64,000 nucleotides of DNA from Candidatus Latescibacterota bacterium. GTDB taxonomy: Bacteria > Latescibacterota > UBA2968 > UBA8231. Both the position numbers and the translations under genes were made by a program. The stretch lies in assembly GCA_965223905.1 (NCBI GenBank), contig CBDCXV010000002.1:320001-384000 (forward strand), written 5' to 3'. The notes under the pieces were generated by a model, which was given only the letters and a program-made list of their open reading frames with translations, was not told where the DNA came from and searched no databases. Below are positions 40,882 to 51,941 of the stretch, in pieces (position 1 is the first letter of the stretch; each line of letters opens with the position of its first letter).

Positions 40882-41661
40882 ATGTTCGCGAAACCGGATT
40901 TGGGAATGACTACACCGCGCAAAATTCCCTCTCTTCTCTTCTCAGCAATTGCTCTAGTGTCGGTGATTTTGGCGAGTTGCGGATACTACCACTACGCCAC
41001 ACCCTTACGCCCCGCCGAGGGTCAGCAGAGTGCGATGAGCGTCGCTGACGATGGCAGCATCACCTTCACGCAGGATCGCCTCGAGGTCAGGCTTCGTCCT
41101 ATGACCGACGAGGAGCTCAATCGGCAGTTTGCATCGCATTCCAATTCAGGACCGAAATCCACCAATCCCTACACCTACGGAAACACCAAATTCTGGGAAG
41201 GCGAACAGGAACGCACCCGATTTACGGTGTTTCGCCTAAGCGTCAAGAATTACGCCTATCCGAAGGTGAAGATTGATCCCGCCCGAATTCAACTCGTCGC
41301 ATCGAACAACCGCGAGTACTGGAGCTTAGGGAAACAGCAGATGGACACGTACTACCGCGCCTATGCCATCGGGTATCGGGGCAACGAGTACAACCGCTAC
41401 CAAGAGCGGATGGATTTGCTGAATCGCACCATGTTTAAGAACGAAGGGATCTTCAGCGGACAGGAGAATGAGGGGTTCGTAATCTTTCCTGCACTTCACC
41501 CCGATGTCCGCGAGATAAACGTCATCGTCCACGATTGCGTGCTAAGGTTCGACTACCGAAATGAACCGGTCGAAGCGGTTGATATCAACTACGGTTTCGA
41601 GCGAGACATCGGGCGCAGGTATGGCGATGCCGAACCCGTAATCGAGACTGCGAGCAAGTAG
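40882..41661 (+). CDS. Hypothetical lipoprotein, possible Ig-like fold
   Basis: Lipobox ILASC; FTVFRLSVKN...GQENEGFVIFP. Start uncertain (40882 or 40906). Confidence 0.68.
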   Translation: MFAKPDLGMTTPRKIPSLLFSAIALVSVILASCGYYHYATPLRPAEGQQSAMSVADDGSITFTQDRLEVRLRPMTDEELNRQFASHSNSGPKSTNPYTYGNTKFWEGEQERTRFTVFRLSVKNYAYPKVKIDPARIQLVASNNREYWSLGKQQMDTYYRAYAIGYRGNEYNRYQERMDLLNRTMFKNEGIFSGQENEGFVIFPALHPDVREINVIVHDCVLRFDYRNEPVEAVDINYGFERDIGRRYGDAEPVIETASK

Positions 41662-41690: not shown

Positions 41691-42641
41691 ATGAAGGCAG
41701 GGCGTCTATTCGCAATCGCCAGCGCCATAACGGTCTTGGCGACCACAGCGCATGCATCAATCACAGACATTCAGAATTTAGCCGCGGGCGCGCGCGCGGC
41801 ATCGCTGGGCAACGCTTTTGTGGCGGTGGCCGACAACGGTGACGCGGTGTTTGCCAACCCGGCGGGTCTGAGCCAGATCGAGAGCCGCCAGTTAGCCTAC
41901 ACCAACATGTCGATGATGTTAGGAGGCATCGACGGGGACGATCTGGGCCGGCACCTTACCAGCTTCGTACAGCCGTTGGGGGAGAAGCTCGCTCTAGGGC
42001 TGGGTTATGCGCGCAACGGCTCGGAGTTGTTTAATGAGAACGGGGCGTTTGCTTCCATGTCCTACCGGTTGAACCGCACCCTGTCGCTGGGCCTAACGGC
42101 AAAGTACCTGTTCTGGAGCGTCGGGGAGATTCCAGATGATAACGGTGTTGCAGACCCGTTGTCGAATAAAAGCCACGGTGCTCCGGGGGTCGATGTGGGT
42201 CTGCTGTGGAAGTCGCCATTGCGCGGGGCGCATTTGGGTCTGCTGTTGAAGGATCTCAATCAACCTAACTCGGCATGCGGAACAAAATGCTCCAAGGATG
42301 CCGTGCTGGAGCCTGATGCCGGCAAGTTGCCGATGGATGTGCACATCGGTATTGCAGCCCCAGTTGCGGAGACCTCGATGGTGTCGGTTCAGTGGGTGAT
42401 GCGCGATCTCGGTGGCGAAACCGAGAGGAGTCTTGTGATTGGTGGCGAGACCCGTCTGGTCGAAGGGCTGATGTTGCGTGCTGGAGGAAGCAGGATCCTC
42501 GAAGAGGATGTTAGCGGCGATCTCAATGCCGGTCTGGGGTACCGCTGGAACAAAATGCTGTTTGACTACGGCTACCACATCCCACTTGATCTGACCGAAA
42601 CCAACGGATCTCATCGCTTCACTCTCAATTATAGATTGTAA
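41691..42641 (+). CDS. PorV/PorQ-family (FadL-like) outer-membrane beta-barrel
   Basis: AAGARAASLGNAFVAVADNGDAVFANPAGL; GVDVGLL, LMLRAG, FDYGY, SHRFTLNYRL; AAGGAGG RBS. Confidence 0.82.
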   Translation: MKAGRLFAIASAITVLATTAHASITDIQNLAAGARAASLGNAFVAVADNGDAVFANPAGLSQIESRQLAYTNMSMMLGGIDGDDLGRHLTSFVQPLGEKLALGLGYARNGSELFNENGAFASMSYRLNRTLSLGLTAKYLFWSVGEIPDDNGVADPLSNKSHGAPGVDVGLLWKSPLRGAHLGLLLKDLNQPNSACGTKCSKDAVLEPDAGKLPMDVHIGIAAPVAETSMVSVQWVMRDLGGETERSLVIGGETRLVEGLMLRAGGSRILEEDVSGDLNAGLGYRWNKMLFDYGYHIPLDLTETNGSHRFTLNYRL

Positions 42642-42684: not shown

Positions 42685-45600
42685 ATGACGGTTTGGTTGG
42701 GACTAATCGTCCTGGGCCTTGGGGTGGGGACTAGCCTCTTCCTCCCCGTTCCGCAGAGCCTGAAGACCAAATTCGACGCGGGCCAATCACTTTATGCCCT
42801 CGGCGAGTACGAAGGCGCCATCATCGAGTACAGCAAGGTTGTCAAGTTCAACAGTCGGGCAGTTCGAACCGACAGTGTCCTAGTAGGTTTCGGCGATGAG
42901 TTGGAGTTGCCGATCATGGCCGCGGCTTGGTATCAGCTTGGCAACGCTCACATGCGCAGTGGAGCCCACGAAAAGGCAGTTGATGCCTTCCGTCAAGTGA
43001 CGGAACAGACCGGCGTTCCCGAAGACTTTAGACAACTCGTCCAATTCCGCGTTGCCGAGACTCGCTTCATGCAAAAGGAGTTTGGTAAGGCGGCAGCCGA
43101 GTACAAGCGATATACGGAGATGTTTCCCGACTCGAAACTGGCCGGAGAGTCGCTGTTCTACGCCGGTTGGAGCGAGTTCAACCTGGAGTCATATGATCAG
43201 GCCATAACCACTCTGGCTAGCATGCTCGAGAGGTATCCCGAAGATCGCTACGCCCCGGACTCCCAGTTCCGCATCGCCTCGTCTTACTACGAGAAAGCCG
43301 AATACCAGCGAGCGGTGGACGAGGCTCAGGCAGTGCTCGATCGTTATCCGGAAAGTCCTGTCATCGCCTCAGCGACCTATTTGAAAGCCCAGGCCTTCGA
43401 CGAGATGGATCGGCCGGACGAAGCTATCAAGGCCTATCGCGAGGTTCGCGATCTGTACGACCGCATGTACGAATTGCTCCGAGGGTCTTTCCGGGAAGGC
43501 AAGAATGTTGATTTTGAAAATTACCGGCAGTTGTTCGAAACGTCATCGTTGCGCGTCGCTGAAATTTACCGAAAACAAGGCCAATTCGAAGAAGCTTACC
43601 AAGAGTTGATATCTGCTCAGGAAACGGCCGAGGAGCGCTTCTACAAAGCGAAAGTTCAGATGCGACTTGGCGACAATTATATGGAATGGGAGCGCTTCGA
43701 CGATGCGTGGAACACCTATAACCAGGTGATCACACTATATGGGGATACCCCTTATCCACCCAATGCCCAGTATCAGAAGGGAGAAGCGCGTTACTTCGCT
43801 GGCCGATACGACGAGGCTCGCAGCGAATACCAGCTCGTAACGCAAAACTATCCGGACAGCGAAACCTCGTTGCGAGCCCAAGCTCTTTACAGTGCAGGTT
43901 GGTCGTCGGAAAAGTTGGGGGATTTCGAAGAGGCTCAGAGCCTTTACACTGAGGTGGTCGAGAGTTTTCCGAGGTCTGACCAAGCACCCCTTTGTCTGTT
44001 GCGGATTGGCCGGGTCAACACCGAGCAACAGCGCTTCGAGGAAGCCATCGAAGCTTACGAGATGATTGCAGAAAACTACGGTGAGACTAAACACGCAGCA
44101 GACGGAAATTACGGTCTGGGAATTCTCTACAAGCAAACGGGAAGACTCGAGGAAGCTATCGCGGCCTTTGCGCGCGTGGGGCGCAAAGCGCGCGAAGTGT
44201 ACGTTGCATCCCTGATTGAGGCGGCAAATATACACATCGGGGAAGGCAGATCTGAGAAGGGGAAAGAGCTCCTTAAAGAGTTGTTGGCAGGAGTTAGCGG
44301 AGACCGCGATCTCGAAGCTACGGCACATTATCAGATCGCCCAGTTGGACCTGAATAACAAGAACTATTTTGACGCAATCACACGATACACAAAAGTAATT
44401 GAGGAATACTCCGAAGCAGGGGTGGTTCGCGATGCACACTATGGCCGTGGTCTTGCCTACCACTACGCCAATCGATACAGCAGCGCGATCGCTGACTACG
44501 GGTGGCTTCTTGAGTCCGACCTTCCGAAGCCTATGCTTTTAAAGGTCGAATTCTCAATGGCGCTGTCGTTGTCCGCTCAAGGCAAGGACGACGAGGCCAC
44601 TGAACTATTAAACAAGGTTATCGATTCAGGAGACGAGACCCTCGCGCGTAATGCCCAGCTACAGCTAATCTCGATGGCAGAGAAGCAGGATCCTCAAGAC
44701 GCCATACGCACCTATGAAAGCATGCTCGCGAAGCTCGAATCCGAGGAAGACAAGGTGCGTGTGCTAATTCGTTTGGCAAGCGCCTACTTCAGACTCGAAC
44801 AGTACGATCGCAGCATCCAGGCATCGCAGCAACTCATTGATCTTGCTGTCGACGTTGAAAGCATTTCCAATGCGTTGTTCGTTCAGGCAAATAGCTTTTT
44901 CCGGTCAGGAAATCTGGAACAGGCGATCGCGACATACCAGACCATCATCGATAACTATCCTCAAATTGGCTGGGCGAAGAATGCTCAATTTCAGATCGGG
45001 GTCGCCTACAATTCCCTGTCTGGAGGCGGCAACGTGCAATACCTACCGTTCATGGTGGAAGCTTTCCGGAAATATCACCAAACGTACCCGGATGACGAAA
45101 AGGCCGTCTATGCTCATTACTACGATGCTTGGGCGAGCTACCGCATGGGCAAATGGCGTGAAGCAGGCACCGCATTCGATCAGTTGGCCAAGAATTATCC
45201 GTCGTCCCACTTTGCTCCTGAAGCGCTGTTCCGATCGGGAGAAGCGATTTTCAACCTAGCCCAAGGCCTGCTTCGGGAAGAAAAGAACCAGATCTTTATC
45301 GAAGCTATGGGAAAATACGACCGCGTTTTGAGTAGATATTCGAAATCCGAGTACGTGGATGATTCCTTGTATAACAAAGCATGGGCATTGATTCATCTGG
45401 GACGAAAGGAAGAGGCCCTGCCAATATTTGAGCGGATCGTAGACAATCACCCCGACGGCTATTACGGTCCAAAAAGTCAATTCACGCTTGGGGATTTCTA
45501 TTACAGTGAGAAGGTCTACGATAAGGCGACCGAAAATTACCAAAAGTTCCTTGAGATATATCCTGATGAGCGTCTCAAGAAAGCCGAAGACAAGAAGCTG

Positions 45601-45930
45601 CGTCGGAAGGCAACCGTCCTTCTCGGTCACCTCTCGGAAATCGACGCCTACAACGTTTACGCCGAAGGCGAGAAGTTGTTCGACAAGGAACAGTACGTCG
45701 AGGCGATCGAGATTTTTGAGCAGGTTCTGGAAAAGTATCCGGACAGCGATCAGGCGGTAAACGCCGCCGTCAACATTGGGGCCGCCTACATGGCACAGGA
45801 AGAGTATCGGAAAGCAGCCGACGTATTCAAACAAGTAGTCGAAAAGTACAGCGAAGCAGCGAGGTTTTCTCCGCAAATAGATTTTTCCAAGCAGCAGCTG
45901 CAGGCTCTGGAAGAAGCTCGTGTCATATAA
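42685..45930 (+). CDS. Large membrane-anchored tetratricopeptide repeat protein (1081 aa)
   Basis: N-terminal hydrophobic helix; many BamD/CpoB-style repeats (YPDS...A.Y..G); AAGGAG RBS. Confidence 0.88.
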   Translation: MTVWLGLIVLGLGVGTSLFLPVPQSLKTKFDAGQSLYALGEYEGAIIEYSKVVKFNSRAVRTDSVLVGFGDELELPIMAAAWYQLGNAHMRSGAHEKAVDAFRQVTEQTGVPEDFRQLVQFRVAETRFMQKEFGKAAAEYKRYTEMFPDSKLAGESLFYAGWSEFNLESYDQAITTLASMLERYPEDRYAPDSQFRIASSYYEKAEYQRAVDEAQAVLDRYPESPVIASATYLKAQAFDEMDRPDEAIKAYREVRDLYDRMYELLRGSFREGKNVDFENYRQLFETSSLRVAEIYRKQGQFEEAYQELISAQETAEERFYKAKVQMRLGDNYMEWERFDDAWNTYNQVITLYGDTPYPPNAQYQKGEARYFAGRYDEARSEYQLVTQNYPDSETSLRAQALYSAGWSSEKLGDFEEAQSLYTEVVESFPRSDQAPLCLLRIGRVNTEQQRFEEAIEAYEMIAENYGETKHAADGNYGLGILYKQTGRLEEAIAAFARVGRKAREVYVASLIEAANIHIGEGRSEKGKELLKELLAGVSGDRDLEATAHYQIAQLDLNNKNYFDAITRYTKVIEEYSEAGVVRDAHYGRGLAYHYANRYSSAIADYGWLLESDLPKPMLLKVEFSMALSLSAQGKDDEATELLNKVIDSGDETLARNAQLQLISMAEKQDPQDAIRTYESMLAKLESEEDKVRVLIRLASAYFRLEQYDRSIQASQQLIDLAVDVESISNALFVQANSFFRSGNLEQAIATYQTIIDNYPQIGWAKNAQFQIGVAYNSLSGGGNVQYLPFMVEAFRKYHQTYPDDEKAVYAHYYDAWASYRMGKWREAGTAFDQLAKNYPSSHFAPEALFRSGEAIFNLAQGLLREEKNQIFIEAMGKYDRVLSRYSKSEYVDDSLYNKAWALIHLGRKEEALPIFERIVDNHPDGYYGPKSQFTLGDFYYSEKVYDKATENYQKFLEIYPDERLKKAEDKKLRRKATVLLGHLSEIDAYNVYAEGEKLFDKEQYVEAIEIFEQVLEKYPDSDQAVNAAVNIGAAYMAQEEYRKAADVFKQVVEKYSEAARFSPQIDFSKQQLQALEEARVI

Positions 45931-45970: not shown

Positions 45971-46624
45971 ATGTTAGATTTCTTTCGTGACGGGGGACCG
46001 TTCATGTATCCGCTGGCTCTTTGGTCGATTATGGCCGTGGGTTTTTTCCTCGAGCGTGTGTGGACATATTCGCGGATGCGTAGCGAAGAAGAGTTGGCTG
46101 AAGCAACCAACGACATAAACACCCGTGTTGACTCGGGGACCACTTTCGAGCAGTTGCGGGAGTACTGTGCAGAGGTGGGCAAGCTGGAAGGTGAAGTATT
46201 CTTGGGGGGTATTGATCGCTTTGAGCACCTTTCGAAAGAACAGCGCACGATGGAAGAAATGCGCGCAGAAATGAACGGCACCGTCGAACGCGCAGCCCTT
46301 GGCTATCTGGAGCGCTACTTGTCGGTTATCCAGTTCGTCGCCAACTCGGTAGTGTTGTTGGGACTGCTCGGAACGGTGAACGGAATGATCCGAGCCTTCG
46401 AGGGTATCGCGGAGAAGGGTCTCGGTGAGCCGACCATCGTTGCGGCTGGTATCTCTGAAGCGCTGATAACCACCGTTACCGGCCTTGTAATCGCTGTGCC
46501 CTCGATTGCGATTTATACCTATTTCAGCACACGTGCCGAGAGCAGGTACGTCCAATTCGAAGCCTACGGACACGGCTTCGTCGACGCTTTGCTTCGTCGT
46601 TGGCAATCCTCGCAAGCTGCCTGA
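45971..46624 (+). CDS. exbB: MotA/TolQ/ExbB proton channel family protein
   Basis: GGPFMYPL...ER; LLGLLGTVNGMIRAF; GISEALITTVTGLVIAVP. Confidence 0.92.
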   Translation: MLDFFRDGGPFMYPLALWSIMAVGFFLERVWTYSRMRSEEELAEATNDINTRVDSGTTFEQLREYCAEVGKLEGEVFLGGIDRFEHLSKEQRTMEEMRAEMNGTVERAALGYLERYLSVIQFVANSVVLLGLLGTVNGMIRAFEGIAEKGLGEPTIVAAGISEALITTVTGLVIAVPSIAIYTYFSTRAESRYVQFEAYGHGFVDALLRRWQSSQAA

Positions 46625-46676
46625 GCGGCATTCTTGCAATTTTAATCAGGATTTAGGTAGGGAGGGACAAGGAGAG

Positions 46677-47096
46677 ATGGCAGCCGTCCAAAAACGTGGT
46701 GGCAATGACGAGAAACCCGACCTCACACCAATGATTGATGTGGTGTTCCAGCTTCTCATCTTCTTCATGGTAACGGCGGTGTTCGCTATCACCCCCGGTC
46801 TGGACATCAAGTTGCCAGAGGCAGAGGAGTCACAGGCCCCCGAGAAGGAAAACCTTTTTATTGTGGTCGATCAGGATGGCAATATGAAGCTCAACCATAA
46901 GAGCGTTACGTTTGCCAATCTCAAAGAGGAACTACAGGCCAAGAGGACGCTATTGGATAACACGACCTTGATAATCATTCAGGGTGACGAACGCGCTACA
47001 CACGGCCAGATCGTCCAGATCATGGACATTGCCAGACAGGTAGGCATTGTCGATCAAGTGATCGCAACGGAGCCGCAAAGAGGACGTGGGAAATAG
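46677..47096 (+). CDS. exbD: ExbD/TolR family protein
   Basis: DLTPMIDVVFQLLIFFMV with the conserved Asp; IQGDERATHGQIVQIMD; AAGGAG RBS. Confidence 0.93.
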   Translation: MAAVQKRGGNDEKPDLTPMIDVVFQLLIFFMVTAVFAITPGLDIKLPEAEESQAPEKENLFIVVDQDGNMKLNHKSVTFANLKEELQAKRTLLDNTTLIIIQGDERATHGQIVQIMDIARQVGIVDQVIATEPQRGRGK

Positions 47097-47201: not shown

Positions 47202-48533
47202 TTGGACGAACGAAAGAAGCAACTATACGCGATATTCGGGGTTGCAGTACTGATTCACCTGCTACTCATCATCTCTAAATGGTTCGCGTACGCTGTAGGC
47301 GCAGCTGCTTTTGCCGTGCTCCTGATGGCGCTATGGAAAGCTACGACTGGACGCCGACTGGGCCTAAACGCCGCCCTTATTCTGTCAGTGATTGTCCACG
47401 CCGGAGCTTGGGGTGTTGCCTACTACATGCAGCTTACAGTGGTTGAAGAAGAAGAAAAGCTGATTTACTTCCAGGCTCCCCCTCCCATTCTGCAGAAAAA
47501 CTTCGATCTCGCCAAACAGCCAGAGATATCGGAAGTACAGATGGAGATGCTGCTTTCCCAGGCAATGCAAGCCCCTGAAGATATTTCGGCAATCGTCGAT
47601 GTCAGTTCGGTGGGAAGCGACCTCCTTGGAGCGGTGTTGCCCGGAACCCAAGTGCTAGGGGCTTTCAGCGGGGCAAAAGCTGAAGAACTCGCCTTCGACC
47701 AAGTCGAGATGATCGAGTTGACACAGACCGCGGCACCCGTGCAGGAAGCTATGAGCTTGAAGCAGGAATTGCTGAACGTCGGCGACTTGGATTTCGGTCG
47801 TTTCCAGGCGATCCTCATCCAGGATCCGGACAACAAGCGCAATATCAAAGGCTTTTTCAACATGACGGTGGTCGACTACGATCTTGCCGACAAAAGCATT
47901 GATCGCTTTCCCACCGCTGTAGAGGAGTTGATGCGGTATATTCGCGACCACTCGCGTGTGAACGCACGTATCGAGGGTACGACACTGCGGCTCAGTGATC
48001 CCGGCGTGATGAAGGCGCCATTTATCTATCTGACTGGCAACAGCGCAGTATTCCAGTTCACCAACACAGAGAAGGAGAACCTCGGCGAGTACCTGAAGAA
48101 CGGTGGGTTTCTGTTCGCGGAAGAAATTCGGCAGGCAGATCCGGAAACCGGTCTCGACCAAAAGAATGCCGGCGTTCAGGGGACTCTTTTTGATCGTCAG
48201 TTCAAGGCGCTGATGAAGGATCCGGACGTCCTCGGAAGCGATGGCAGCAAATGGCAGAAAATCCCCAAGGACCACGATCTATACTACAGCTTCTTCGATT
48301 TCGAAGACGGACCACCGATGGGTGGGGCTCCGGGTGGCAATGTGTTCGACCTTGAAATGCTTGAGCTTCGGGGTCGTGTCGCGGTGGTTTTCAGCGATCT
48401 CAATATCAGCTGGTACTGGGGTGATCCGAACGCCGACGCGAGGGAACGTGGTTTGCAGTTCGGGGTCAACCTGATTGTTTATGCCCTCACCCAACCTGGT
48501 GGCATTGCAAATGTGACTCAATACACTCAGTAG
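47202..48533 (+). CDS. Membrane-anchored DUF4159 domain protein with a TonB/TolA-like SxxxH helix
   Basis: N-terminal hydrophobic segments including LSVIVH; C-terminal PFIYLTG...ENLGEYLKNGGFLF...DHDLYYSFF...GRVAVVFS...GVNLIVYALT. Confidence 0.8.
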   Translation: MDERKKQLYAIFGVAVLIHLLLIISKWFAYAVGAAAFAVLLMALWKATTGRRLGLNAALILSVIVHAGAWGVAYYMQLTVVEEEEKLIYFQAPPPILQKNFDLAKQPEISEVQMEMLLSQAMQAPEDISAIVDVSSVGSDLLGAVLPGTQVLGAFSGAKAEELAFDQVEMIELTQTAAPVQEAMSLKQELLNVGDLDFGRFQAILIQDPDNKRNIKGFFNMTVVDYDLADKSIDRFPTAVEELMRYIRDHSRVNARIEGTTLRLSDPGVMKAPFIYLTGNSAVFQFTNTEKENLGEYLKNGGFLFAEEIRQADPETGLDQKNAGVQGTLFDRQFKALMKDPDVLGSDGSKWQKIPKDHDLYYSFFDFEDGPPMGGAPGGNVFDLEMLELRGRVAVVFSDLNISWYWGDPNADARERGLQFGVNLIVYALTQPGGIANVTQYTQ

Positions 48534-49072: not shown

Positions 49073-49924
49073 TCAAACGCGGGTGTATTTGAAGACCAGG
49101 TTTTCGACACCCACTTCGCCGACATAAAGATCGCCATGACGGTCCACCCACAAAGAATGAGCGCCGTGAGGTCGATCGTCTGGTCCCCCGGTCACGACAA
49201 ACTGCGACATAAGCCGCCCCCCCGGACTGAAGATGCTCACGCCGCCTCCTTCAGCCACGAACACGGCCCCATCGGGATCGATGAAAAGCCCACAAGGATA
49301 CAGGCGACCTGGCCACTGCTCCAGAAAGCCGCCGTCGAAGTCGAAGAACTGGAGGCGGTTGTTCGGTTCGCGGTCGGCAACGGCCACTCTCTCGTCGGGG
49401 GTGATGAAGATATTATGCGGCAACGTAAATTGGCCCGGCTGAGACCCCTTTCCACCCCAGGAGTGTTTCCAGGTGCCGTCAGATGAAAAGCAGTGTACGA
49501 ACTGCTGGCCGTAGCCATCGCTGACGAAAATGTCCTCGGAGGGAGCTTGGACCGCCCTGGTTGGCATGTTGAACGGCTCGCCCGGTGCGCCGATATTGCC
49601 AGGGTTTCCCAGGGTCTGAAGCACCTTGCCCTCGGTTGTGCAGATACGCACGCTGTGATCGCGGCAATCCGTGATGAAGAGGCGATCGTCGGGCGAGATC
49701 CAGATTTCGTGCGGCAAGGGAAACAGGTCCTCACCCCAGGAGGTCAAGAAGCGACCCTCGCGATCGAACACCACAATGGCGGGTTCTGGTTCCCGGTCGA
49801 CGACGTAGACGCGGTCCGCTGAATCAACCGCAATTCCCGAATTTACACCCATGGCACGCCCGGCTTGCCCACGCCCCCAGCCTTCGACCCGTTCGTATTG
49901 GTATGGTGCCGATCCTACAATCAC
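49073..49924 (-). CDS. NHL-repeat protein (peptidyl-alpha-hydroxyglycine lyase-like propeller)
   Basis: FDREGRFLTSWG, PHEIWI, FNMPT, IFVSDGYG, SWGGKGSQPGQFTLPH, VADRE. Confidence 0.88.
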   Translation of the reverse strand: MIVGSAPYQYERVEGWGRGQAGRAMGVNSGIAVDSADRVYVVDREPEPAIVVFDREGRFLTSWGEDLFPLPHEIWISPDDRLFITDCRDHSVRICTTEGKVLQTLGNPGNIGAPGEPFNMPTRAVQAPSEDIFVSDGYGQQFVHCFSSDGTWKHSWGGKGSQPGQFTLPHNIFITPDERVAVADREPNNRLQFFDFDGGFLEQWPGRLYPCGLFIDPDGAVFVAEGGGVSIFSPGGRLMSQFVVTGGPDDRPHGAHSLWVDRHGDLYVGEVGVENLVFKYTRV

Positions 49925-50063
49925 GAGATTCTCCGTCTGTTGAGGTTAGGGCACCAAGCATTGATCGAGTTTTTGCGCCTGTCAAGGCAGGTAGAAAAAC
50001 AACGCGTTGACAGTAGATGTTCATTCTCGAAGTTAGGATCCGTTATTGTGGAGGAAGCATGGA

Positions 50064-51941
50064 ATGAGATTGCCCAACACGCTTGCGATCCTCGTTTTTC
50101 TCAGCGTAGGAGTATGGGCGGGGGAGGTCGATACATCGATGACGCAGGTCGCCACACTCCCCGGACCCGCAAGGCAGCTTGTTGAAGACGCCGAAGGCCG
50201 AATTTTCCTCGTTCTCGACGGACCCCGGGCAGGCTTGGCCCTGATTCAGGAGAATGGTGTCCGTATGGTCTATGAGGGGGCAGTGACTTCGGCAGCTGCG
50301 TCACTGGACGGCTTTCTTTTCCTCGTTGCAGGAGAAGAAGACAGGTGCGTTCTCCGTCTGTCTGAGGAGGAAGCGACTACCGTCGCAGACGGACTGGGGG
50401 TTTCCTCCATCGATGTCACTGCGGCCTTCGGAGCCGCGCCGACCGGCAAGGGTAGCATCGCTCGTTCCGCGGATGGCGCGGTCCGGGTCGAGGGCTGCCC
50501 CAATCTGCGCCGCGCAGATGGAACCTTTGGACCTGTCCCCAGTGCGGGCGGGGGCGACCTCGTTGTCCCGTTGACTCGCGATCTATTCGGGAACTCCTGG
50601 TCGCTGACCTCCTCGGCCGAGCCCAACACAAGGGTGTCCGTGCTCGCCGCCAACGAACCGGCCCGCTGGCAGGATGTCACCCCATCCGAAGGAGGGTCGT
50701 GGGAAATCATCCTTGCCGACGCCGTCGGCTTCGTATGGATCGCCGGGGCGAATGGACTGCGGCGTATCGACCCGAGCACAGATGAAGGCTGGCTTGAGCT
50801 GCCGCGAACGCTCAGCCTGCCGCCGGGAGAGGTTTCGGCTCTTGCCCGTTCTCCGAACGGGAGGGCCTTGGTCTGCTTCGCCTCTGGAGAAGTGATCGAA
50901 ATAGACTACAACAACGACATCGGCAAGGCGGAGATCGTCCATCTGACACGCGAACTGCTGGAGGCCCCTGTACAGGCTGCCTACACTGATTCACGGGGCA
51001 ACGTGTGGCTCAGCATGGGCAGCGAGCTTTATCGAAGGCAAGCGGATGAAAATGCTTGGCAACGCCACTGGAAGGCCCTGAGTCCGATGCCGGGAGGCAA
51101 CCACGACATCTTCTCCGTCGAGGTCGGTGGCCGTCTCTACACGGCGGGAGGGGTAACCAGTGGATGGGGGTTCCCCGCTGAGCATCACTGGTTCGACGAG
51201 TTGTGGGCGTACGTCCACGCGACCGGAGTTTGGGAGGTTGCCGGGCGCCTGCAGGCTGAGCTGTGCTACAACGGGATCGTCACGCTGGAACAGGATGTCT
51301 GGGTCGTCGGCGGCGCGGACAATGTCGACGACGTGAGAGTACCGACGGCTGCCGTTCAGATATTCGATCCGCGAACCGCGGCCTGGCGCCAAGGCCCGGA
51401 AATGAACGAAGCGCGCATGGAGCCGGTCGTCGTGACAGCGGCCGGCAGGATCTACGCGATCGGCGGAGCCAGCGACAAATCCTCCCCCATGGCATCGGTC
51501 GAAAGCATCGGTCCTAAGGAGCAAAGCTGGCGAATGGAGGCTCCTCTTCCGAAGCCGATGCGCCAGTTTGCCGGAGCAACCCTTGACGGCATCATTTATT
51601 GCATCTCCAAGGAAGCCGGATTCTCCTACAACGTGCAGACCGGCACTTGGAGCGAGCTCCCCCGTCTGCAGAACATGCCGCAGGCGGCCCAGGTGGCCGC
51701 CCACAACGGTGAGATATGGGTGCTGGGGGGCGTTCGCATCAAGCGAACCTTCCGCTTCGACCCTGCAAACGGCGAATGGCTTCCAGGCCCGGACTTGCCT
51801 ACCGAGCAATCCTGGGGTTCCGCCAGCGATCTCGACGGCCGCCTAGTGGTCGCCGGTGGTGCGCGTTGGTCCGAGTTTCACCAGCGCTACATTTTCGACG
51901 ATTCAGCATATATGTACAGGGAGGGCTCCTTCGAGGAGTGA
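50064..51941 (+). CDS. Exported beta-propeller protein with C-terminal Kelch repeats
   Basis: Signal peptide; GRLYTAGG, VWVVGG, GRIYAIGG, GEIWVLGG, GRLVVAGG. Confidence 0.82.
   Translation: MRLPNTLAILVFLSVGVWAGEVDTSMTQVATLPGPARQLVEDAEGRIFLVLDGPRAGLALIQENGVRMVYEGAVTSAAASLDGFLFLVAGEEDRCVLRLSEEEATTVADGLGVSSIDVTAAFGAAPTGKGSIARSADGAVRVEGCPNLRRADGTFGPVPSAGGGDLVVPLTRDLFGNSWSLTSSAEPNTRVSVLAANEPARWQDVTPSEGGSWEIILADAVGFVWIAGANGLRRIDPSTDEGWLELPRTLSLPPGEVSALARSPNGRALVCFASGEVIEIDYNNDIGKAEIVHLTRELLEAPVQAAYTDSRGNVWLSMGSELYRRQADENAWQRHWKALSPMPGGNHDIFSVEVGGRLYTAGGVTSGWGFPAEHHWFDELWAYVHATGVWEVAGRLQAELCYNGIVTLEQDVWVVGGADNVDDVRVPTAAVQIFDPRTAAWRQGPEMNEARMEPVVVTAAGRIYAIGGASDKSSPMASVESIGPKEQSWRMEAPLPKPMRQFAGATLDGIIYCISKEAGFSYNVQTGTWSELPRLQNMPQAAQVAAHNGEIWVLGGVRIKRTFRFDPANGEWLPGPDLPTEQSWGSASDLDGRLVVAGGARWSEFHQRYIFDDSAYMYREGSFEE

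Follow-up and report, generated by a model that had tools for sequence, protein, structure and literature searches.

A DUF4159 protein with a TonB-like membrane anchor as a putative force transducer of an ExbB-ExbD motor in Latescibacterota

In the 64,000-nucleotide stretch of DNA from Candidatus Latescibacterota bacterium analyzed here (assembly GCA_965223905.1, contig CBDCXV010000002.1, positions 320,001–384,000; hereafter the window), the gene at 47202–48533 encodes an inner-membrane protein that is probably a force transducer, in the style of TonB or TolA, of the ExbB-ExbD proton motor encoded by the adjacent genes, with a DUF4159 domain as its head. This reading rests on architecture, conservation and synteny: the order of exbD and the gene, a His residue within a membrane helix, a profile match to TonB N-termini, a motif that follows the helix, the spacer and head, the orientation of the protein in the membrane, and the modularity observed among the paralogs of another genome (designated G003). 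It also rests on precedent, since the same logic has been published for proteins whose head is of the von Willebrand factor A (vWA) type (PMC12204202). The physical contacts of the protein, the transmission of force through it and the nature of its target are what we infer from this evidence.

Architecture and orientation of the protein

A preliminary description of the gene had listed an LSVIVH sequence (S62/H66), a similar AVLIH in the first helix, an acidic linker containing QAPPP and then DUF4159 in place of a TonB C-terminal domain, and all of these elements were confirmed on the sequence. An AlphaFold2 model of the 443-residue protein, built with 97 sequences (mean predicted local distance difference test score, pLDDT, of 80), displayed low confidence at residues 76–200, with a single short helix in the spacer at 111–120, and, from around residue 200 onward to the C-terminus, an alpha/beta domain modeled with confidence. 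The features of the gene are as follows:

47202–48533, plus strand: TonB-like anchored DUF4159 protein, TTG start, 443 residues
47226–47276, plus strand: helix 1, residues 9–25 (2–24 in the model), with AVLIH at 47244–47258 and H19 at 47256–47258
47280–47336, plus strand: helix 2, the return helix, residues 27–45 (26–47 in the model), followed by the basic loop KATTGRR
47361–47429, plus strand: helix 3, residues 54–76 (52–75 in the model), with LSVIVH at 47385–47399, S62 at 47385–47387 and H66 at 47397–47399
47457–47522, plus strand: post-helix motif KLIYFQ-APPP-ILQKNFDLAKQP, residues 86–107, a candidate motor box
47430–47801, plus strand: acidic, mostly disordered spacer, residues 77–200, with pLDDT below 50 over residues 120–188
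47868–48488, plus strand: DUF4159 head, residues 223–429 (Pfam DUF4159, E 2.6e-27), with a glutamine-amidotransferase-like alpha/beta fold

The TTG start is preceded by GAGGA at a distance of 9 nt. A start at M42, which would leave a single TonB-like helix, was considered and rejected, since 52 orthologs retain the coding sequence of helices 1 and 2. The only Pfam family matched by the protein was DUF4159 (PF13709), with a score of 96.1 bits against a cut-off of 25.9; no VWA family was matched. TonB_C was found neither in the whole protein (Pfam, E ≤ 0.01) nor in the N-terminus alone (E ≤ 10), and a search of Pfam with N-terminal fragments at E ≤ 10 returned no TonB-related family. What the protein shares with TonB and TolA is thus its general build, as proposed in the preliminary description: a His-bearing helix, a Pro-flanked motif after it, a disordered spacer and a head other than TonB_C in the periplasm.

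The orientation was deduced from the distribution of charge. Basic residues mark the N-terminus (DERKK) and the loop that joins helices 2 and 3, and acidic ones mark the segment past helix 3 (VVEEEEKLIYFQAPPPILQ, residues 80–98); by the positive-inside rule the DUF4159 head is therefore predicted to face the periplasm and not the cytoplasm. A short DUF4159 paralog of the same genome possesses a signal-peptide-like N-terminus, in agreement with a periplasmic head.

This topology also bears on a quite improbable alternative, namely that the protein is a transmembrane sensor or regulator, in which DUF4159 senses a periplasmic signal and the helices relay it to the cytoplasm in the manner of an anti-sigma factor or a BlaR1-type receptor. 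The cytoplasmic part consists of only about 8 residues before helix 1 and a 9-residue loop, no output domain is present, and no regulator gene is conserved in the operon. What speaks for a sensor is that DUF4159 occurs behind ECF (extracytoplasmic function) sigma-factor domains in three representatives (P0139, P0140 and P0170) and behind BlaR1/M56 domains in three proteins (P0213, P0270 and L201:532–2751), fusions which indicate that the domain behaves as a portable periplasmic module. For the fusion proteins themselves a sensing role stays plausible, but the flagged protein has hardly any cytoplasmic part. TonB_C also occurs fused to M56 domains, so the M56 fusions do not separate the sensor from the transducer.

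Conservation of the helix histidine and the post-helix motif

A scan of species-representative genomes for orthologs identified 63 loci of 48–96% identity, labelled as Latescibacterota or as (probably mislabelled) Gemmatimonadota and others. The N-termini from 59 of these were aligned with that of the window, giving 60 sequences; L060 was missed by the motif pattern, and L072, L073 and L075, which are truncated or contain the letter X in their sequence, were dropped as well. Every one of the 52 orthologs that have helix 1 carries a His at position 19, with Ala (51 sequences) or Ser (1) at position 15. At H66, on the other hand, the column contains His 47 times, Glu 11 times and Leu twice, and at S62 it contains Ser 35 times and Ala 25 times. 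The eight more distant orthologs have one helix only, at the position of helix 3, and all eight contain SxxxH, so that helix 3 corresponds in position to the ancestral TonB-like helix. In the clade with three helices, the unchanging His is that of helix 1, not that of the flagged helix 3.

The conservation of SxxxH, which the preliminary description proposed to check, was therefore borne out for the His, in helix 3 of 47/60 and helix 1 of 52/52 sequences, and not for S62, replaced by Ala in 25 of 60, or for H66 throughout. S62/H66, the motif singled out in the preliminary description, is thus not what is best kept: H19 is better kept, and in the wider family the residue four positions before the His is Ser in only 5 of 34 sequences. 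A lone SxxxH in one sequence is weak evidence, as a rough estimate puts its occurrence by chance at a few percent over three helices; it rises above chance because the His is conserved in the orthologs and in the distant family.

An exhaustive search for the family (E ≤ 0.001) yielded 883 clusters at 50% identity. Among the best 150 of these, the post-helix motif was recognized by pattern in 39, of which 35 had enough N-terminus to be judged, and the helix His was present in 34 of the 35. Four residues before it, these 34 representatives have Ala (21), Ser (5), Gly (3) or Ile (1), the residue being undetermined in 4. An alignment of a distant subfamily, designated A2 and composed of 27 sequences (representatives of the 50%-identity clusters and one paralog from the genome of the window), displayed an invariant His and, 18 residues past it, an invariant motif, PL-T-F--R-PR--KP-E (PLTTxFxxRxPRxxKPxE). 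This motif aligns with KLIYFQAPPPILQKNFDLAKQP of the flagged protein, whose own post-helix motif is conserved in the orthologs. For the distant relatives, the protein atlas returned clusters of Latescibacterota and Gemmatimonadota only. Being Pro-flanked and built of alternating hydrophobic residues, the motif resembles by eye the D-box of TonB, which is bound by the ExbD dimer through strand addition (PMC10907165).

The depth of the His in the membrane is similar to that in TonB. In the flagged protein it lies 13 (helix 1) or 14 (helix 3) residues past the nearest cytoplasmic Lys or Arg, and 13 is the most frequent spacing both in the A2 alignment (13/27) and among the TonB proteins of the phylum that have the His (6/12). 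A profile was built from 26 TonB N-termini, obtained from 30 TonB loci in the 40 other Latescibacterota genomes searched; compared with A2 by hhalign, it matched across 44 columns with a probability of 86.6% (E 4.5e-6), and the two His columns fell opposite each other. Among these canonical TonB N-termini (L159–L188) only 12 of 26 keep the helix His, so that the DUF4159 family retains it more strictly than do the TonBs of the phylum.

Such conservation has to be weighed against the possibility, which we regard as unlikely, that the protein plays a passive part, as a periplasmic subunit anchored in the membrane within an envelope complex of the TPR protein, lipoprotein and barrel encoded in the same operon, that the motor acts on the TPR protein, the lipoprotein or an unlinked TonB, and that the His serves helix packing or oligomerization. 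A near-invariant His at a fixed depth together with an invariant Pro-flanked motif is what docking on a motor predicts and is needless for a plain anchor, and the similarity of the N-terminal profile to TonB N-termini points the same way.

Gene order, operon partners and paralogous cassettes

The observation from which the preliminary description set out, that the gene follows exbD, proved correct: the ORF (open reading frame) begins 105 nt past exbD, itself preceded by exbB, and exbD lies directly upstream in 62 of the 63 orthologous loci, the exception being a gene at the start of its contig. A TPR gene was found upstream of exbB in 57 of the 63, and the loci without it have short flanks. 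No protein of the operon is kept better than ExbD, with 85–98% identity across most orthologous loci; the corresponding values are about 65% for the TPR protein and about 72–75% for the DUF4159 protein. In four loci (L063, L064, L065 and L077) the upstream motor genes are only 26–32% identical to those of the window. The genes that precede the flagged gene in the operon are:

40882–41661, plus strand: lipoprotein Y, 259 residues from the likely start (ORF from 40753), with lipobox ILASCG; the first conserved gene of the operon
41691–42641, plus strand: putative outer-membrane beta-barrel of 316 residues with a signal peptide; sub-threshold matches to PorP_SprF (E 5.6e-4) and FadL/Toluene_X (E 5.9e-4)
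42685–45930, plus strand: giant TPR protein of 1081 residues, anchored by a hydrophobic N-terminus; matches to TPR_6 (E 5e-85) and numerous further TPR families
45971–46624, plus strand: ExbB/TolQ-type subunit, 217 residues; MotA_ExbB (E 1.3e-24)
46677–47096, plus strand (ORF 46506–47096): ExbD/TolR-type subunit, 139 residues from the likely start; ExbD (E 9.7e-29)

Both motor subunits scored somewhat better on TolQ/TolR than on ExbB/ExbD models, all below the curated cut-offs; for ExbB, the best NCBIfam match was TolQ with 82 bits, also below its cut-off. The transmembrane Asp of ExbD, D21, is invariant in 32 sequences, so the motor looks functional. Lipoprotein Y is syntenic in orthologous loci wherever the flank is long enough, and its paralogs lie beside other DUF4159 genes of the genome and directly downstream of DUF4159 genes in metagenome loci. 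Its AlphaFold2 model (pLDDT 81) shows a beta-sandwich into which a helical segment is inserted, and the matches to it in the PDB were weak (best Foldseek E 2.3e-3). Long forms of Y (L010:8435–9670, L011:6763–8037, L127:9270–10466 and L150:1660–2865) contain a weak TonB_C-like domain at a constant position, about residues 320–375 (E 8e-6, 2.8e-3, 0.036 and 0.19), which the Y protein of the window lacks. The 316-residue barrel keeps its position across orthologous loci, and four paralogs of the TPR protein adjoin DUF4159 genes elsewhere in the genome. The operon is closely followed by an NHL-repeat propeller gene (49073–49924, minus strand), syntenic only in the closest relative, L016, and by a gene for a Kelch-repeat protein (50046–51941, plus strand).

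The genome to which the window belongs (7.9 Mb) contains 10 matches to DUF4159, 13 to ExbD, 9 to MotA/ExbB and 2 to TonB_C, one of the latter in a canonical exbB-exbD-exbD-tonB locus, as well as 26 matches to the TonB-dependent-receptor barrel family. Seven of the DUF4159 paralogs possess an N-terminal helix, and six of these contain a His preceded at four residues by Ser or Ala. Two of the helix paralogs, including the gene of the window, come directly after exbD, and one lies in divergent orientation beside exbB-exbD-exbD. The recurrent neighbors of the paralogs are a TPR protein of about 1080 residues, an exported protein of 900–1000 residues, which we designate X, and lipoprotein Y.

A sixth TPR-ExbB-ExbD-ExbD locus of this genome (C11:899412–908061, minus strand) is headed by a TPR-like ORF of 1091 residues; a 259-residue lipoprotein comes next, no transducer is encoded, and about 12 kb lie between the locus and the closest DUF4159 gene. 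In a paralogous TPR-ExbB-ExbD-ExbD-DUF4159 cluster (L009), a gene of the FGE-sulfatase (SUMF1-like) family is inserted between the two exbD genes (L009:11271–12746; C2:283271–284746 of the same genome, minus strand). FG-GAP/ASPIC (UnbV) propellers and a DUF6785-DUF6784 protein recur near several of the paralogous clusters (L011:2908–6631 and L009:1766–4078).

Metagenomes were queried with the A2 subfamily, which is 30–40% identical to the flagged protein, and 45 loci had at least 600 nt of upstream sequence. In 16 of these exbD lies directly upstream on the same strand, and some motor gene is present in 18; the typical order is X-TPR-ExbB-ExbD-ExbD-gene-Y.

A different arrangement was observed in genome G003 (3.1 Mb), which has 16 DUF4159 matches and one exbB-exbD-exbD motor locus. 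This locus (L206), arranged as barrel-X-TPR-ExbB-ExbD-ExbD-Y, encodes no transducer. Elsewhere in the genome 13 paralogs have both the His helix and the post-helix motif (L190–L200, for example L192:1405–5570). Three are arranged in tandem, and an X-family gene lies within 1.5 kb of 11 of the 13. When 12 of these paralogs were compared, the helix and motif (the N-terminal 80 alignment columns) were 86–97% identical and the heads 15–55%. This pattern appears to fit many transducers docking on one motor, each head having its own partner; gene conversion or another shared function of the N-terminus could give the same picture. Members of the X family, from G003 (L206) and from other loci, are:

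L009:6827–9559, L009:17059–19806, L010:14106–19705 and L206:14382–17297: protein X, 900–1000 residues, with a signal peptide, beside DUF4159 genes

Protein X contains invariant Asp-rich repeats of the DxDxDG and DDNDD type, reminiscent of calcium-binding sites; searches returned no Pfam match and no sequence match in the PDB, and the atlas gave a weak lead (0.89) to the TonB-dependent-receptor-like barrel family DUF6029. On these grounds one may entertain a broader, still doubtful scheme in which a second counterpart of the TonB/receptor system, not homologous to it, operates in Latescibacterota and their relatives. A single ExbB-ExbD motor and its giant TPR partner would serve a set of interchangeable DUF4159 transducers, almost identical in the His helix and motor box by which they dock and divergent in their heads. 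Each would be encoded next to its cognate Asp-repeat protein X, recognized and energized by the head, and the three-helix ortholog of the window would be the housekeeping member with its own motor, lipoprotein and barrel.

Other arrays of the domain occur as well. A tandem array in genome G006 (contig C5; L201:532–19589 and L202) comprises at least seven DUF4159 matches with a BlaR1/M56-DUF4159 fusion in first place; no exbD was found on that contig.

Several observations weigh against the transducer reading. Most DUF4159 paralogs in the genome of the window do not adjoin a motor; 29 of the 45 metagenome loci have no exbD directly upstream (15 of these 29 are short contigs from one sample); and when the long DUF4159 genes of five further genomes of the phylum were counted, just 1 of about 26 adjoined exbD. 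Taken with the 62/63 and 16/45 counts, these numbers mean that motor adjacency is strong in some subfamilies and absent for many members, so that the placement of DUF4159 beside exbBD, whose frequency the preliminary description proposed to check, holds for the orthologs and part of the distant subfamily, and is rare among the long genes of the five genomes. The sigma-factor and BlaR1/M56 fusions suggest that DUF4159 by itself does not imply motor coupling. Within the protein, the three predicted helices differ from the one of TonB, and H66 of the flagged helix is Glu or Leu in 13 of 60 orthologs. As for the profile match, hhalign matches between short helix-containing regions can be spurious. 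Finally, Ser16 and His20 of Escherichia coli TonB contact Ser34 and Trp38 of ExbB in a structure determined by cryo-electron microscopy (PMC12215075), and no ExbB of the genome, the TonB-linked one included, has kept the equivalents of both. Since the pair is not kept even there, the check is uninformative. A complex prediction of two copies of ExbD residues 38–139 with residues 74–135 of the protein gave a score of 0.00; controls were not run, and the result counts neither way.

A number of these points would suit the passive subunit introduced above. Many members of the family are encoded at a distance from all motor genes; as neighbors, the TPR protein and Y or X are no less constant than exbBD; the three-helix anchor is unlike TonB; and motor loci without a transducer gene exist (L206 of G003 and the C11 locus). 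They have to be set against the strict order of exbD and the gene in all but one of the orthologous loci, and against the near-identity of the N-termini among G003 paralogs whose heads have diverged.

The DUF4159 head, known systems and the proposed mechanism

Fold comparisons of the head identified one close relative, PDB entry 4i66 (profile E 2.1e-27; Foldseek E 2.2e-10), on which 188 residues were aligned by VIA with a Z score of 22.1, a root-mean-square deviation of 2.0 Å and 25% identity. This protein, Hoch_4089 of Haliangium, is an uncharacterized, stand-alone exported form whose chain of 200–209 residues is about the length of the domain alone. The next best folds were class I glutamine amidotransferases (PurQ, PdxT and HisH), ThuA-like and IFT52-type proteins and glycosidase accessory domains, with Z scores of 8–9.4; according to VIA, values of 8–9 are in a middling range common for a shared arrangement. 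A vWA structure was not among the best 50 PDB matches of either fold search, and absence from such a list does not exclude the fold. In the genome of the window, a vWA gene lies about 8 kb from the short form of DUF4159. As to function, no report was found for the family or for 4i66; literature searches by family, InterPro entry, locus tag and PDB code led to the Pfam database paper only.

These matches raise the possibility, which we judge highly improbable, that the protein is a periplasmic enzyme tethered to the membrane and acts on a substrate of the envelope, by hydrolysis or transfer, through its amidotransferase-like fold. The resemblance that favors an enzyme, to amidotransferases, ThuA-like proteins and glycosidase accessory domains, lies in the range just mentioned as common for a shared arrangement. 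Among 97 members of the family, the conserved residues of the head are Y297, G301, G302, H358, F367, P372, R392, W406 and N423, and no Cys occurs in columns that are invariant or nearly so, as judged from the alignment without superposing the nucleophile elbow; a glutaminase-type active site is thus unlikely. Class I glutamine amidotransferases share the flavodoxin-like alpha/beta fold, and their conserved catalytic Cys (with His and Glu) has no counterpart among these conserved columns of the head. Moreover, the heads diverge fast between paralogs, which is more typical of binding modules.

The closest precedent was published by Williams-Jones et al. (Mol Biol Evol, 2025), who described TonB-like transducers of unknown function with a vWA head, not a TonB one, in TPR-tolQ-tolR operons, with a helix carrying an essential-type His in an SHLS motif, a motor box, some 100 residues of spacer and a vWA-fold head (PMC12204202). 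The calling of the flagged protein a new class was accordingly overstated, as motor-driven transducers with a head unrelated to TonB were already on record in that work. The likeness extends to the SHLS-type His helix, the disordered region of about 100 residues, the globular head unrelated to TonB or TolA, and the position of the gene downstream of TPR, tolQ-like and tolR-like genes. The differences are that the head is DUF4159, with a glutamine-amidotransferase-like fold and no vWA match in Pfam or among the 50 best of either fold search, and that the flagged ortholog group has three helices and one exbD rather than two (the distant subfamily has two). No vWA gene was found near any exbD of the genome. 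The main text of PMC12204202 names neither DUF4159 nor Latescibacterota, and its supplementary gene lists may overlap with the present set. What is new here is the three-helix form with an invariant His in helix 1, the loss of the flagged His in some orthologs, the expansions of paralogs that share a dock and differ in their heads, and the candidate partners X, Y and the small barrel.

In common with TonB, the flagged protein has an anchor with the N-terminus in the cytoplasm, a helix His equally far from the basic residues on the cytoplasmic side, a strand-like motif flanked by Pro, a long non-globular spacer, a gene placed after exbB-exbD and an N-terminal profile that matches the TonBs of the phylum. 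It differs in the lack of TonB_C (PF03544), in a spacer that is acidic and not rich in Pro-Lys/Pro-Glu, and in its three helices; in addition, the genome holds a separate canonical exbB-exbD-exbD-tonB locus. Resemblance to TolA of the Tol-Pal system is seen in the motor subunits, which score best on TolQ/TolR models (below cut-off), in the TPR protein of the operon and in the SxxxH helix; unlike that system, the operon genes examined include no TolA domain III, TolB or Pal, for which the genome as a whole was not searched. CpoB, the TPR protein of Tol-Pal, is unlike the 1081-residue, membrane-anchored TPR protein of the operon.

If the protein is indeed a transducer, a His-bearing helix would dock on the outer face of the ExbB pentamer. 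Conservation favors helix 1 for this role, and helix 3 occupies the ancestral single-helix position. Past the membrane, the periplasmic domains of ExbD would grip the strand-like motif (KLIYFQ, then APPPILQKNFDLAKQP), the acidic disordered spacer of about 120 residues would span the periplasm, and the head, presumably a non-catalytic, glutamine-amidotransferase-like module, would hold a partner near the outer membrane. Candidate partners are lipoprotein Y and the small barrel and, in the paralogous cassettes, the 900–1000-residue exported protein X. Torque or pull generated by the motor would thereby reach the partner of the head.

As the head of a TonB-like, motor-linked arm, DUF4159 acquires a testable hypothesis of function that would apply to at least 883 clusters (50% identity). 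The reading would widen the 2025 proposal that motors of the ExbBD/TolQR type drive more than Ton and Tol, and the pattern of a shared dock with variable heads, together with the recurrence of X, Y and the TPR protein, points to the proteins with which binding may be tested.

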